Shown piece by piece: positions 25,901 to 30,492 of a stretch of DNA of 64,000 nucleotides. This DNA is from Salinivirgaceae bacterium (GTDB taxonomy: Bacteria; Bacteroidota; Bacteroidia; Bacteroidales; SZUA-534): the NCBI GenBank assembly GCA_024405635.1, contig JAKSOL010000004.1, positions 83,563 to 147,562 of the forward strand. Direction: 5' to 3'. A program made the translations under genes and the position numbers. The notes under the pieces were generated by a model. The model had not been told where the DNA came from, did no database searches, and saw nothing but the letters and a program-made list of their open reading frames with translations. Position 1 is the first letter of the stretch; the number at the start of each line of letters is the position of its first letter.

Positions 25901-26760
25901 GCAACGTAACCATATCAATCGATCCGCATTCGGGGTTTTGCTTTGGCGTGCAAAATGCTGTGAGCAAGGCAGTTGAAGAACTGGCTAAAGGTGCACCATT
26001 GTATAGCCTTGGCGCTATGGTGCATAATCCAGCCGAGGTTAAACGTCTTGCCGATATGGGCTTGCAAGTTATTGACCATGAGCAGTTTAATAAAATAAAC
26101 AACTCAAAAGTGCTTTTTCGTGCTCACGGTGAGCCGCCCGAGAGTTACATTAACATACAACAGCGTGGAATTGAATTGATTGATGCCACTTGTCCTGTGG
26201 TTTTGCGGCTGCAACAACGCATAAAATCGGCCTACCAAAAGGCTATTCAAAAAAATGGGCAGATAGTGATATTTGGTAAAAAAGGTCATGCTGAAGTGGT
26301 TGGTCTTATTGGGCAAACCAACGGCACCGCCATTTTGATAGAATCGGAATTGGATCTTGATAAAATTGACTTTAATAGACCTATTGAATTCTTTTCGCAA
26401 ACCACCAAAGATGTAGGCCATTTTATGCAATTAGTTGCCATTATTGAGAAAAAAGCAACCGATTTTAGTTGGCACGACACCATTTGCCGTCAAGTTGCCA
26501 ATCGTGGACCATTGTTGCACGATTTTGCTGCTCATCACGATTTAATGATTTTTGTTGGTGGCTCCGATAGCTCAAATGCCAAGGCCTTGTTCGATATATG
26601 CAAGCAAGTTAATCCGCAATCAATATTTGTAGAGTCGCCTGCCGATATTACAGCCGACATGCTCAAAGGAGCTGCAAGCATCGGTATAAGTGGTGCCACT
26701 TCAACGCCATCGTGGCTCATACAAAATGTTGAGTCGTACGTTAGGGGATTGGTGGGGTAG
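25897..26760 (+). CDS. ispH: 4-hydroxy-3-methylbut-2-enyl diphosphate reductase
   Basis: GFCFGV, VHN, RAHG, DATCPVV, SQTT, DTICRQV, SSN, GATSTP. Confidence 0.97.
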   Translation: MSNVTISIDPHSGFCFGVQNAVSKAVEELAKGAPLYSLGAMVHNPAEVKRLADMGLQVIDHEQFNKINNSKVLFRAHGEPPESYINIQQRGIELIDATCPVVLRLQQRIKSAYQKAIQKNGQIVIFGKKGHAEVVGLIGQTNGTAILIESELDLDKIDFNRPIEFFSQTTKDVGHFMQLVAIIEKKATDFSWHDTICRQVANRGPLLHDFAAHHDLMIFVGGSDSSNAKALFDICKQVNPQSIFVESPADITADMLKGAASIGISGATSTPSWLIQNVESYVRGLVG

Positions 26761-26919
26761 TTCAACAAATCAAAAGCCATAAACTTGCATAGTTAGTGCT
26801 TGTAACTAAGCCTATTAGATTTTGTTTTTCCCAAAAAAGTTTGATAAACAGCCTTAACTAATAAATAGAGGTAAGTGCTAAAAACACAACGCTTTATTAG
26901 TTTTGCAATAAACACGTAA

Positions 26920-27762
26920 ATGATGGAAGCTGAATACACCACCATAAAACCGCAATCGAGTCTGCTCGACATTGACATGAAAGAGTTGTGGCGATACCGC
27001 GATTTGATTTACATGTACACCAAGCGCGACATTGTTACATTCTACAAGCAGACCATACTTGGTCCGCTTTGGTTTGTAGTTCAGCCTGTTCTTACCACCG
27101 TAATGTTCATGTTTGTGTTTGGCAACTTGGCAGGAATCTCCACCGATGGCATTCCTGGCGTGTTGTTCTATTTTAGCGGCATCATTATTTGGAACTACTT
27201 TGCCGACTGCCTTAACCGCAACTCAAAAACCTTTACCGACAACCAAAGCGTTTTTGGCAAAGTGTATTTCCCCCGTTTGGTTGTGCCCATCTCCGTAACC
27301 ATTTCAAACCTAGTTAGGTTTCTCATTCAGTTGGTGCTATTTGTTGTAATTTATTTGTACTACATAATTACAGGCGCAGGCATATTGCCTAACCTTTATT
27401 TGCTTTTGCTGCCACTGCTTGTGCTGATGACCGCAGGCATAAGTCTTGGTTTCGGCATAGTGTTTTCGTCGCTTACAACCAAATATCGCGACCTTACCTT
27501 CCTCCTTCAATTTGGCGTGCAACTTTGGATGTACATAACTCCAATTATCTATCCACTTAGCAGCATATCGGCCGACAAACAATGGCTAATACAGCTAAAT
27601 CCAATGACATCGATAATTGAAACATTCAAGTTTGGAGCCTTAGGTACAGGCGTATTCTCGTGGGGGTGGTTAGGCTACAGCTTCGGATTTATGACTCTAA
27701 TATTGTTTATTGGCATAATCATTTTCAACAAGATAGAGAAAAGCTTTATGGATACGGTGTGA
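26920..27762 (+). CDS. wzm: Polysaccharide ABC exporter permease
   Basis: ELWRYRDL...YKQTILGPLW, KVYFPRL, YRDL, YITPIIYP, NPMT; TAGTTTTG promoter element at 26898-26905. Confidence 0.93.
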   Translation: MMEAEYTTIKPQSSLLDIDMKELWRYRDLIYMYTKRDIVTFYKQTILGPLWFVVQPVLTTVMFMFVFGNLAGISTDGIPGVLFYFSGIIIWNYFADCLNRNSKTFTDNQSVFGKVYFPRLVVPISVTISNLVRFLIQLVLFVVIYLYYIITGAGILPNLYLLLLPLLVLMTAGISLGFGIVFSSLTTKYRDLTFLLQFGVQLWMYITPIIYPLSSISADKQWLIQLNPMTSIIETFKFGALGTGVFSWGWLGYSFGFMTLILFIGIIIFNKIEKSFMDTV

Positions 27763-27803
27763 ATTCGGCTATTTGCTTTTGGCTTTTGGCCATTAGCAGT
27801 GGC
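27763..27803 (+). repeat. Left heptamer array (consensus ~YWTTGGC) upstream of the four-helix-bundle gene
   Basis: ATTCGGC TATTTGC TTTTGGC TTTTGGC CATTAGC AGTGGC, starting right after the wzm stop. Confidence 0.8.
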
Positions 27804-27835
27804 TGATGCAAAATTGTTAACCAACAAAAAAAGGA

Positions 27836-28213
27836 ATGAGAGATTTTAGAAAATATGATGTTTGGAAATTGGCAATGGTCTTAACTAAAGACATTTACAA
27901 CATTTGCGCTACATTCCCACAAAAAGAGCAATTCTCTTTAGCAAATCAAATGTGCCGCGCTGCTATATCCATTCCTTCAAACATTGCAGAAGGATGTTCT
28001 CGAAGTTCCAATATTGAATTTGCAAGATTTATTGAAATAGCTATGGGCTCTGCTTTTGAATTAGAAACGCAATGCGAAATAGCAGAAACCATTAATTACA
28101 TAACAACAAATCAAAAGGACAGTTTAATAGAAAAACTTAATATTATTCAGCGCCAATTAAATGCGCTTAATAGCAAAATTAAACCGCAAAAGAAACCAAA
28201 GGCCAATAGCTAA
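27836..28213 (+). CDS. Four helix bundle protein (23S rRNA-IVP / TIGR02436 family)
   Basis: VWKLAM, FPQKEQFSLANQMCRAAISIPSNIAEG, FIEIAMGSAFELETQ. Confidence 0.93.
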   Translation: MRDFRKYDVWKLAMVLTKDIYNICATFPQKEQFSLANQMCRAAISIPSNIAEGCSRSSNIEFARFIEIAMGSAFELETQCEIAETINYITTNQKDSLIEKLNIIQRQLNALNSKIKPQKKPKANS

Positions 28214-28229
28214 TGGCCAATAGTTAATA
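28195..28229 (+). repeat. Right heptamer array, inverted relative to the left array
   Basis: ACCAAAG GCCAATA GCTAATG GCCAATA GTTAATA. GCTAATGGCCAA (28209-28220) is the exact reverse complement of TTGGCCATTAGC (27786-27797). Confidence 0.8.
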
Positions 28230-28237
28230 GTTTGAAC

Positions 28238-29530
28238 ATGCCCACAGCAATAAAAATAGAAAACCTAAGCAAGCAATACCGTCTTGGAGTGATTGGCACA
28301 GGCACATTGAGCCACGACCTTAACCGTTGGTGGACCATGAATGTGTTGCGAAAAGAAGACCCATACCTTAAGATAGGCGAGACCAACGACCGCACCACAC
28401 GTGGCGAATCGGACTATGTGTGGGCCTTGCGCGACATAAACATGGAAATAGAGCAAGGCGATGTGGTTGGCATTATTGGCAAAAATGGAGCAGGAAAATC
28501 AACGTTGCTGAAAATCCTATCACGCGTTACTAAACCCACAACAGGCACAATTAAGTACCGCGGACGCATTGCTTCGTTACTCGAAGTGGGCACTGGTTTT
28601 CATGCCGAAATGACTGGACGCGAAAACATATACATGAACGGCTCCATAATGGGCATGACACGCGCCGAAATAACCCGCAAACTCGATGAGATTGTCGATT
28701 TTGCCGGCATTGAGCGCTACCTCGACACTCCCGTAAAACGCTACTCAAGCGGCATGACCGTTCGCCTCGGGTTCTCCATTGCCGCCCACTTGGAACCCGA
28801 TATCCTTGTAGTTGACGAGGTTTTGGCCGTTGGCGATGCCGAATTTCAAAAGAAAGCCATTGGCAAAATGCAAGACGTAAGCAAAGGCGAAGGCCGTACG
28901 GTACTGTTTGTGAGCCATAATATGGCGAGTGTAAAAAGATTATGCAAAAATGGCATATTATTAGAAAATGGACTAATCAAAAAATCGGGATTAATCGACG
29001 AAGTCATCGATTACTATATAGACAACTATCAATCAGAGAAATCAATGCCATATGTGGAAGTGACCAAAGAAATGCATGACAAAAATAGAAGTTTGAAAGC
29101 AAAATTTCTTTCGTTTGAACACATAAAAGGATCCACTAAATATGCAACGGACGAGGATATTGTTTTGCGAATAAAAATATACTCTGATTATGACATTCAA
29201 AATTGCAGAATAAATTCAACCGTTTATACATCTGAAAAAGTGGCAATATGCAATAACTCTTCAGAAGACTATTTCCATATTTATGCTGGCCAAACGATTG
29301 ATGTTGAATACATCATTCACAATCCCGGATTAGTCATAGGCAATTACAATATGAATTTTTCTATTGGCATAGGGAATATGACTGAAGGTGAAACCAATTA
29401 CGATGTAGTGAAAGCTCCTATAACATTTGAGATTGACAAGCCTTACAAAGATGAGAATAAGTACTATGTCAAATGGGACAAACATGGATGGGGGAACATA
29501 TACATGCGTACGGAGACAAGAGTCCTTTAA
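28238..29530 (+). CDS. wzt: Polysaccharide ABC exporter ATPase with C-terminal Wzt_C-like domain
   Basis: Walker A GKNGAGKST, YSSGM signature, VVDEVLAVGD, VSHN; beta-rich C-terminal extension; ATG at 28238. Confidence 0.93.
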   Translation: MPTAIKIENLSKQYRLGVIGTGTLSHDLNRWWTMNVLRKEDPYLKIGETNDRTTRGESDYVWALRDINMEIEQGDVVGIIGKNGAGKSTLLKILSRVTKPTTGTIKYRGRIASLLEVGTGFHAEMTGRENIYMNGSIMGMTRAEITRKLDEIVDFAGIERYLDTPVKRYSSGMTVRLGFSIAAHLEPDILVVDEVLAVGDAEFQKKAIGKMQDVSKGEGRTVLFVSHNMASVKRLCKNGILLENGLIKKSGLIDEVIDYYIDNYQSEKSMPYVEVTKEMHDKNRSLKAKFLSFEHIKGSTKYATDEDIVLRIKIYSDYDIQNCRINSTVYTSEKVAICNNSSEDYFHIYAGQTIDVEYIIHNPGLVIGNYNMNFSIGIGNMTEGETNYDVVKAPITFEIDKPYKDENKYYVKWDKHGWGNIYMRTETRVL

Positions 29531-29547
29531 CAAAAAAAAACTAAACA

Positions 29548-30492
29548 ATGCAATATCGCACATTAGCGGATTTGAGTAATCTCGTCAGAACCAACATATA
29601 CATAGTTCCACACGATATTGATTTGGTTGTAGGAATACCACGGAGTGGAATGTTGCCTGCAAATATGATTGCACTGTTTCTAAACAAAAAGATGTCCGAC
29701 ATAGACTCTTTTTGCGAAGGCAGGATAATGTCAACAGGGAAACGCTCTCAATATATTGCCGATACAGATATTAAAAGAGTCTTAATTGTAGATGACAGCG
29801 TTAATCAAGGAAATTCAATTAAAGCCGCAAAAGATAAACTTACAGTACTGAATGACAAATTTGAATTTGTATATTTAGCTCCAATAGTATCTTCTTGTGG
29901 AAAAGAACTCGTTGACATCTATTTTGAAATCATAGACGACAGAAGAATCTTTGAATGGAATCTATTTCATCATCCAATTATTGGAAGATCATGCCTTGAC
30001 ATAGACGGCATATTAAACAAAGACCCTGAAATTGATGATGATGGCAATATCTACAAACAATTTCTTCATGATGCTACACCTATGTTTCTACCTACAGTAG
30101 AAATTGAAACATTGATTACATGCCGTTTAGAAAAATATAGGAATGACACTGAATCTTGGTTAAAACGACATAATATTAGATATAAAAATCTTGTAATGCT
30201 AGATTTACCCTCACGCGAAGAACGAATCAAATGGGGCCGCTATGGAGAATTCAAAGGAGAGTATTACAAAAATAACAATCAAGTGTTATTCATTGAAAGC
30301 AACAAAAAACAAGCACAAATAATAGCTAACATTTCTAACAAACCTGTAATTTGCTTAGAGTGCAATTCTCTTATCTCTCCAGAAACGAGCGTTAAGCTAA
30401 AAGAGAACAGCAAAAGTCTTATAAAAAAAATGATAAATTTGATTTTACATGGCAAGATTTTTCTCTCTTTATTATTAATAATAGGAAAATGA
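29548..30492 (+). CDS. Type I phosphoribosyltransferase + HAD-like phosphatase fusion
   Basis: VVGIPRSG and PRPP-binding loop VLIVDDSVNQGNSI; second domain CLDIDGIL (DxD), LITCR, a conserved K and LFIES. Confidence 0.8.
   Translation: MQYRTLADLSNLVRTNIYIVPHDIDLVVGIPRSGMLPANMIALFLNKKMSDIDSFCEGRIMSTGKRSQYIADTDIKRVLIVDDSVNQGNSIKAAKDKLTVLNDKFEFVYLAPIVSSCGKELVDIYFEIIDDRRIFEWNLFHHPIIGRSCLDIDGILNKDPEIDDDGNIYKQFLHDATPMFLPTVEIETLITCRLEKYRNDTESWLKRHNIRYKNLVMLDLPSREERIKWGRYGEFKGEYYKNNNQVLFIESNKKQAQIIANISNKPVICLECNSLISPETSVKLKENSKSLIKKMINLILHGKIFLSLLLIIGK

Follow-up and report, generated by a model that had tools for sequence, protein, structure and literature searches.

Inverted heptamer arrays bracket a 23S_rRNA_IVP-family gene between wzm and wzt and most of its relatives: an apparently undescribed cassette architecture

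The intervening sequences (IVS) of bacterial 23S rRNA that bear an open reading frame (ORF), known from Leptospira, Coxiella, Xanthomonas and Brucella, are the closest described systems to the element reported here, a small gene bracketed by inverted arrays of heptanucleotides that separates wzm from wzt in a 64,000-nucleotide stretch of a Salinivirgaceae bacterium (assembly GCA_024405635.1, contig JAKSOL010000004.1, positions 83,563 to 147,562 of the forward strand; this whole stretch is the window, and coordinates count from its first letter). In Coxiella, as described in passages of PMC4990558, the 23S IVS holds an ORF of the PF05635 family and a 28-bp terminal stem, with two to three tandem GACAGAT heptamers upstream of the ORF whose number varies by strain; it is excised by RNase III, the 5' cut falling at the start of the first heptamer, and the authors describe its ORF as in decay and unlikely to be translated. 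The function of PF05635/TIGR02436, a very large family (at least 1495 relatives at E ≤ 1e-10 in one protein search), is unknown, and the family is known only through the rRNA IVS and through its fold relative Avd. It is named in papers on rRNA insertions of the candidate phyla radiation, on Avd and on diversity-generating retroelements, which in the passages available do not describe its flanks, and a literature search, with supplements and the subscription-only Leptospira and Coxiella IVS papers outside its scope, found no account of inverted heptamer arrays as a general packaging of TIGR02436 or PDDEXK_3 genes.

The cassette between wzm and wzt shares with the rRNA IVS its protein family, an ORF within terminal inverted repeats (a stem of ~28 bp in the IVS passages, arms of 26-27 nt here), tandem heptamers of variable copy number at the stem (the strain variation of the IVS being that given in passages of PMC4990558) and, as far as the IVS sources describe it, a sense ORF within a host transcript and no transposase. 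It differs in its site, a spacer between protein-coding genes, whereas the IVS occupies helix 25 or 45 of 23S rRNA, so that the cassette lies outside the location by which an IVS is recognised. RNase III excision, demonstrated for the rRNA IVS in the published passages, would extend to the wzm-wzt cassette by analogy. The ORFs also differ in condition: whereas that of Coxiella decays, the cassette family is under purifying selection, with dN/dS of 0.06-0.24 in all 25 pairs of unsaturated dS among 46 close family pairs.

The locus is arranged, to the base, as an earlier note made from the letters of this DNA had described it, with sequence and ORF list in agreement. All features lie on the + strand. 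The stop of wzm (TGA, 27760-27762) is followed at the next base by the left (5') arm (27763-27797), recovered from the sequence, by inverted-repeat search, by Tandem Repeats Finder (TRF; period 7, C31:111329-111352) and in the predicted fold, and made of the five tandem heptamers ATTCGGC, TATTTGC, TTTTGGC, TTTTGGC and CATTAGC. A small local hairpin (CATTAGC AGTG GCTGATG, 27791-27808), present in both the minimum free energy (MFE) and centroid structures, and an A-rich leader (27809-27835) precede the four-helix-bundle gene (27836-28213), whose last residues and stop codon (TAA, 28211-28213) are encoded by the right (3') arm. This arm (28195-28229; ACCAAAG, GCCAATA, GCTAATG, GCCAATA and GTTAATA), supported by sequence, repeats and duplex energy, is the reverse complement of the left, and an 8-nt spacer (28230-28237) parts it from the wzt ATG at 28238. 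The perfect 12-bp core claimed for the arms was also found, 27786-27797 (TTGGCCATTAGC) being the exact reverse complement of 28209-28220, and the several pairing registers expected from the 7-nt period number three in the inverted-repeat search, spaced 7 nt apart (26 nt at 77%, 22 nt at 82% and 18 nt at 83%).

The protein assignments of the earlier note likewise agree with profile searches. The cassette protein, of 125 residues, is by its scores a member of 23S_rRNA_IVP/TIGR02436, above the curated cut-offs (PF05635, 126.4 bits against 33.8, E 6.7e-37; TIGR02436, 122 bits against 24, E 1.2e-35); its closest relative in the protein collection is 89% identical, no other exceeds 59%, and copies in contigs labelled Fibrobacteres, Bacteroidales and Maribacter are ~50% identical. 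The upstream ORF (26920-27762) matches PF01061 ABC2_membrane (3.5e-18), as fits the ABC-2 permease of a polysaccharide exporter, with weak NCBIfam Wzm/KpsM matches under the cut-off, and the downstream ORF (28238-29530) is an ABC ATPase (PF00005, 2.9e-21) with a Wzt C-terminal domain (PF14524 Wzt_C, 1.4e-07). No transposase or recombinase was found in or beside the cassette, and a promoter and terminator scan of 26700-29700, which did not include Bacteroidota-type promoters, returned no more matches than shuffles. We hold with high confidence that the cassette is of IVS type, lying in sense inside host transcripts and inserted or lost whole.

When 27755-28245 is folded as RNA, a check proposed by the earlier note, the arrays pair in both the MFE and the centroid structure. 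Taken alone, the arms form a predicted 21-bp duplex with two 1x1 loops (27766-27790 with 28195-28219) of -32.7 kcal/mol, compared with -14.3 +/- 3.2 kcal/mol for shuffled arms, none of 500 of which match it. In the predicted fold the hairpin at 27791-27808 would compete with pairing of the final left heptamer.

The arrangement is not peculiar to this copy. The genome's sole other family member, between argC and argD (an acetylornithine-aminotransferase-like gene), is enclosed by inverted arrays of another sequence, TAATGTT, TAATGTT and TAATGAT on the left and CATTAAA, CATTAAA, CACTAAT and CTTTAAT on the right. For a wider comparison each locus was scored by the best local match of its two flanks, the 110 nt ahead of the start and, in reverse complement, the 140 nt that surround the stop; mismatched flank pairs from different loci served as the null, and loci within the family sets are related and hence not independent. 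The family occurs in 34 of 41 related genomes at 1-15 copies per carrier; Bacteroides thetaiotaomicron, present in the control panels, matches TIGR02436 too. In a set of 32 loci (30 family matches in relatives, this locus included, plus L002 and L004; loci and genomes are cited by L and G numbers, G000 being this genome) the median own-flank score was 16.5, against 8.0 in 992 mismatched pairs, with 25 loci above the 95th and 16 above the 99th percentile. A further 80 loci, the best 80 of 588 confirmed stretches in one-genome-per-species contigs with a 10-sequence alignment as query, carry labels that include Bacteroidota, Planctomycetota, Chloroflexota, Verrucomicrobia, Nitrospirae, Betaproteobacteria and Clostridia as well as Acidobacteria-type and Desulfobacterota-type, and in them the inverted-flank pattern is alike at all G+C contents. 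Short flanks or N led to the exclusion of five loci (L061, L072, L095, L129, L139), which left 107 usable loci, 76 of them from many phyla; 80 (75%) exceed the 95th percentile (11.0) and 61 the 99th (13.8) of 642 mismatched pairs, and the median is 15.0 for own flanks against 7.5 for those of other loci. In 40 extra loci from the table of family matches in the related genomes, taken in table order with flanks unseen and with internal-stop, near-contig-start and partial matches skipped, 25 score above 11 and 17 above 13.8, a count that retains at least four loci with a wrong automatic start or frame (L216, L228, L233, L238). Among 398 random ORFs of at least 100 aa from this genome, used as a control, the corresponding rates are 3.0% and 0.25%.

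These counts bear on the alternative that slippage-born intergenic heptanucleotide repeats merely chance to flank a gene with which they have no functional link. According to passages of PMC4679880, no class of longer simple repeat is commoner in prokaryotes than heptanucleotides, which in Beggiatoaceae lie directly against start codons, and this genome has many gene-less arrays of its own. Chance of this kind would not predict the excess of family loci over control ORFs (75% against 3%), the advantage of own flanks over those of other loci, the prevalence of the inverted arrangement (80 loci against 20 direct) or the recurrence of the pattern across many phyla and G+C contents; we consider it very improbable, and as plain coincidence it is practically excluded. 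The stem-bracketed cassette is a real architecture and the rule for most family loci, apparently undescribed, and the compact transposase-less cassette that the earlier note saw here and proposed to look for at paralogues is borne out at this locus and in most relatives. The comparison points to the wzm-wzt cassette being one copy of a widespread cassette type, kin to the ORF-bearing 23S rRNA IVS.

Measured in the 80 positive loci, the matched arms have a median length of 27 nt. The left arm begins a median of 3 nt past the upstream stop (within -5 to +10 in 40 of 75) and terminates a median of 25.5 nt ahead of the cassette start codon; the right arm begins a median of 4.5 nt past the cassette stop, lying within the ORF in 26 of 80, and terminates a median of 14 nt ahead of the next start codon (within -10 to +15 in 41 of 73). 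Because the arms begin at the upstream stop and end at the downstream start, the foot of the stem juxtaposes the stop and start of the neighbours, and the placing of the wzm stop beside the wzt start is thus a local instance of a general geometry. Of the arms that are periodic, 41 of 51 on the left and 52 of 66 on the right have period 7 (6, 8 and 9 are also seen), the period is the same in both arms at 36 of 38 loci, and only 1 of 107 shuffled flanks is periodic. The units differ among loci and change quickly in evolution, yet the two arms of each locus match. Both neighbours are co-oriented with the family gene at 81 of 98 loci, and where the neighbours agree in direction the family gene is sense in 81 cases and antisense in 4. 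At L062, L066, L086, L087 and L139 the upstream flank directly repeats the 3' end of the gene plus the array (score up to 53), which resembles a tandem arrangement with a second or partial cassette.

The account that we prefer, at a probability of about 0.5, reasons by analogy with the rRNA IVS. The unit, consisting of a ~27-nt tandem-heptamer array, a short A-rich leader, the four-helix-bundle gene and the reverse-complement array, would have entered the wzm-wzt spacer whole and, having no promoter or transposase of its own, would be transcribed from the host operon. Within that transcript its arrays would pair, so looping out the cassette, with the wzm stop and the wzt start at one foot of the stem. 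The most likely consequence would be cleavage of the stem by RNase III as in the rRNA intervening sequences, freeing the cassette mRNA and parting the wzm half from the wzt half; alternatively or in addition, ribosomes terminating on wzm might melt the foot of the stem and expose the wzt start, coupling stop to start. We infer pairing in vivo, cleavage, any effect on wzt and the way in which the unit moves.

A number of observations weigh against this account. The earlier note had taken differences between the arms that are compatible with G-U pairing as fitting pairing in RNA, and this is not borne out as a general signal: mismatches in the 80 positive stems comprise 81 G:U and 75 A:C (87 and 89 across all 107 loci), with no sense-RNA signature, and in stability the sense duplex leads at 42 loci, the antisense at 37 (Wilcoxon p 0.71). 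Since no RNA signature was found, the putative RNase III excision is carried over by analogy from the 23S rRNA intervening sequences. The 491-nt fold as a whole beats its shuffles only mildly (z -2.34, 2 of 100 shuffles being equally stable). The 81 sense genes among 85 hardly exceed the genome baseline of co-orientation (1140 of 1265, 90%), and with a rate so near the baseline we do not use orientation bias as evidence. Of the 107 loci, 66 have inverted matches only, 14 inverted and direct, 6 direct only and 21 none, so that 21 lack a flank match and 20 show matches in direct orientation. Finally, some arrays enclose no gene, for example C4:60529-60737, between ORFs called divergent by a crude picker, and inverted arrays also flank unrelated cargo, namely PDDEXK_3 and AAA-type ATPase genes. 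RNA contigs of two metatranscriptome runs span 27104-27544 and 28565-28855, parts of wzm and wzt, with the cassette outside them, and so favour neither side.

The symmetric mismatch spectrum, which has no strand preference, fits the main rival account, in which the arms would act in DNA and mark both ends of a cassette that is mobile or exchangeable but not autonomous, much like the terminal repeats of miniature inverted-repeat transposable elements (MITEs) or attC, with RNA pairing a by-product. Such a cassette might be served by a factor in trans or by recombination with like arrays, and replication template switching might keep its arms alike. We regard this as possible but on balance doubtful. 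Neither recombinase nor transposase occurs in or beside the cassette, no target-site duplication is seen by eye at the two family loci of this genome, the arms are tandem repeats of variable length unlike known terminal repeats, and their placement between stop and start, with the sense orientation, fits a constraint at the transcript level at least equally well. Nor was an excision product, an empty allele or a joint allele seen in the contigs of four public runs, which is weak evidence; DNA contigs of two of the public runs (X2 and X6) bridge the arrays at wzm-wzt.

Comparison of junctions among relatives shows that the cassette is gained or lost as one unit, and the empty sites for which the earlier note had asked do exist. 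At argC-argD the spacer in G020, where argC is 86% identical, is 21 nt long and has no arrays, and in four genomes of another genus it measures 18-20 nt; in G000 and G024 the junction holds the family gene (71% identical) with a shared unit type. At wzm-wzt the two genes are directly adjacent solely in L019 and L021 among the assessable loci, and the junction is a hotspot of differing small orphan genes in relatives. The family member that occupies it in G022 (wzm 87% and wzt 65% identical) has just 36% identity and is flanked by inverted octamer arrays; elsewhere the occupant is a PDDEXK_3 gene (L017, L018), an AAA_14/DUF4143 ATPase (L005, L007) or arrays only (L009). Arrays move with their cargo, three different cassettes at one junction each having arrays of their own, and this, together with the array-free empty site in G020 and the variation of unit copy number between orthologues (L033 versus L034, for example), fits ends that would act in DNA.

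Further occupants of these junctions were also observed. Among the wzt orthologues L004-L022 the wzm-wzt spacer also holds AlbA_2/HATPase_c_4 helix-turn-helix (HTH) proteins, a PDDEXK_9 gene and an ORF with a SpoIIE domain. The argC-argD spacer of G022 holds a RhuM-family gene (L143:2536-3516) without flanking arrays, and that of G025 (L151) is a 148-nt gene-less hairpin of inverted AACGCAGAG-like arrays, which may correspond, in mRNA, to the ORF-less intervening sequences of rRNA. In the wzm-wzt cassette of G022 (L004:1440-1520) the octamer array, four copies of ACGAATCA, encodes the C-terminal tail of the IVP protein, and the stop of the IVP gene overlaps the start of wzt (ATGA), an overlap suggesting that in G022 translation of wzt is coupled directly to that of the cassette gene.

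The relation between arrays and protein was followed by scoring flanks across loci. Scores of at least 12 were reached by 67% of 12 pairs at 70% or more protein identity, by 16% of 80 pairs at 55-70%, by 3% of pairs at 45-55% and by ~0.5% of pairs lower still. Overall, protein similarity and repeat unit are weakly correlated (Spearman 0.08, reached by 9 of 999 permutations), units being common only to close relatives. That loci have arrays in common only when their proteins are at least ~55% identical is again compatible with exchangeable DNA ends.

Array packaging is not specific to the TIGR02436 family. Among PDDEXK_3 (PF13366) genes of related genomes, which encode ~125 aa, 21 of 30 loci (L166-L195) score above 11 and 17 above 13.8, with typical units like CACAGAG or CGCAGAT. 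In this genome an ATPase_2 gene with an HTH domain (G000:C8:41300-42709, L199) and an AAA_14/DUF4143 gene (G000:C35:11783-13072, L200) have inverted TAATGAT-type arms, of 25 nt at 80% and 34 nt at 76%, respectively, and the ATPase cassette at wzm-wzt in G020 has ten GGAGTTA-like heptamers on its left and TAACTTA-like heptamers on its right. Arrays without a gene are common as well: TRF finds ~15 dispersed clusters of mosaic intergenic arrays in this genome. Their units fall into four types (TAATGAT-like, GTTCTAA-like, the octamer TCAACGAA-like and GCCAAYR-like), and hairpins resembling repetitive extragenic palindromes (REP) accompany them. The two family genes use the first type (argC-argD) and the fourth (wzm-wzt), and the GCCAAYR unit of the wzm-wzt locus recurs in other clusters. 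Like packaging of differing cargo and gene-less arrays of all four unit types both suit the DNA-level alternative, and the symmetric mismatches and the packaging of unrelated cargo jointly favour it over pairing in mRNA. The overall interpretation in the earlier note is partly supported: the architecture, its generality and the empty sites stand, there is no sign of selection for pairing in the sense RNA, and the arrays are not exclusive to one family. Side features accompany the ATPase cassettes of L196 (G020), L008 (G018) and L006 (G004), in which three ~30-nt repeats (containing AAAAAGTCGTACATAAAATGTG) lie between the left array and the gene and a GC-rich hairpin follows it; these may be the promoter or operator and the terminator of the cassette itself.

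The earlier note had also suggested that the encoded protein binds its own repeats. The heptamers could be binding sites of a pentameric Avd-like protein that would wrap the 7-nt repeats much as TRAP wraps its triplets and thereby regulate stem processing, the neighbouring genes or the mRNA that encodes it. The cassette protein matches PDB entry 2gsc (E 2.2e-22), which like the related structure 2rld was deposited with five chains, so that a pentamer is a prediction from sequence similarity for the cassette protein; Avd itself is, in passages of bioRxiv 10.1101/2023.10.23.563531, a pentamer that contacts a defined RNA element. The arrays at wzm-wzt have ~4-5 units, the family is moderately basic (median pI 8.6, cassette protein 8.9), and purifying selection maintains the protein. 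Polarity, moreover, tracks the cargo family, the 5' arm having G>C in 63 and G<C in 12 of the 80 family loci, with a C-rich 3' arm, while at PDDEXK_3 loci it shows no G/C bias and has A>T in 18 cases against 2; as the G/C polarity is invariant under reverse complementation, it is a property of the palindrome and identifies no coding strand. Against binding stand units that differ between loci at 35-45% protein identity with no common motif, unit numbers that range from ~3 to more than 10 per array across loci, like unit types that flank ATPase genes or stand alone in this genome, and the disproportion between two family genes and ~15 array clusters. The arrays around PDDEXK_3 and ATPase genes and the gene-less arrays weaken the proposal that the protein binds its own repeats, which we judge improbable, although such binding would be compatible with either mRNA pairing or action of the arms in DNA.

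Pairing in the operon mRNA remains the account that we prefer for the wzm-wzt cassette. A broader and more tentative view, which we think somewhat unlikely, is that IVP and PDDEXK_3 cassettes, the ORF-bearing rRNA IVS and at least part of the orphan arrays form a single unrecognised superfamily without transposase, whose ends would be produced and held complementary by a dedicated mechanism. This could be hairpin-templated copying, or the encoded ring protein or nuclease acting on the repeats, and it would allow insertion precisely between the stop codon of one operon gene and the start codon of the next, as well as in rRNA helices. Independently of mechanism, the packaging rule, inverted heptamer arrays that reach from stop to start within operons, is apparently undescribed and checkable, extends to a second orphan family in PDDEXK_3, and ties together rRNA intervening sequences, intergenic heptanucleotide repeats and Avd-like proteins that lack a retroelement.

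Other described systems resemble the cassette in part. Short tandemly repeated repetitive (STRR) sequences is the name given to the intergenic heptanucleotide repeats of cyanobacteria. The TAACTGA repeats of Beggiatoaceae are direct repeats that end just before start codons (passages of PMC4679880, a paper that nowhere uses the terms S23, intervening or four helix). Both resemble the cassette arrays, as far as the published passages go, in being tandem 7-nt intergenic units that often end before a start codon and in the reuse of few unit types within a genome (four types here); they differ in being direct repeats with one genome-wide unit and, in those passages, no linked gene, whereas the cassette arrays form a reverse-complement pair that encloses a gene and has a different unit at each locus.

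Integron cassettes are promoter-less sense ORFs expressed from outside, with a compact attC at one end. They and the present cassette have a boundary conserved in structure over sequence, and in both cassettes turn over at one site, but here the palindrome is split into two arms around the ORF, unlike attC, and cassettes stand singly in ordinary operons. No integrase or attI was seen, no search aimed at them or at attC having been made. With Avd of diversity-generating retroelements the cassette protein has the four-helix-bundle fold family in common (bAvd PF22296, 3e-06, under the cut-off), and it fails the Avd equivalog (NF033474, 21.5 bits against a cut-off of 80). This score and the lack of any reverse transcriptase match (PF00078, RVT_1) across the 99.8%-complete genome speak against identity as a diversity-generating retroelement, and retro-mobility of the cassette is rejected on the latter ground. 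The LSU (23S) rRNA gene is not in this genome's assembly.

REP, bacterial interspersed mosaic elements (BIMEs) and MITE-like repeats are dispersed intergenic mosaics of few palindromic modules, without genes. The array clusters of this genome are similarly dispersed mosaics of modules, and the arrays adjoin REP-like hairpins such as GGTGGCTGAGCTTGTCGAAGCCGCC; they differ in that REP, BIME and MITE modules are single palindromes with no gene, where here the modules are tandem heptamers. Examples of the mosaic clusters are G000:C8:40600-43040, C4:60480-60780, C26:18580-18990 and C35:10840-13320; the majority have no gene inside them, and certain clusters are repeated as larger units of ~130 nt.

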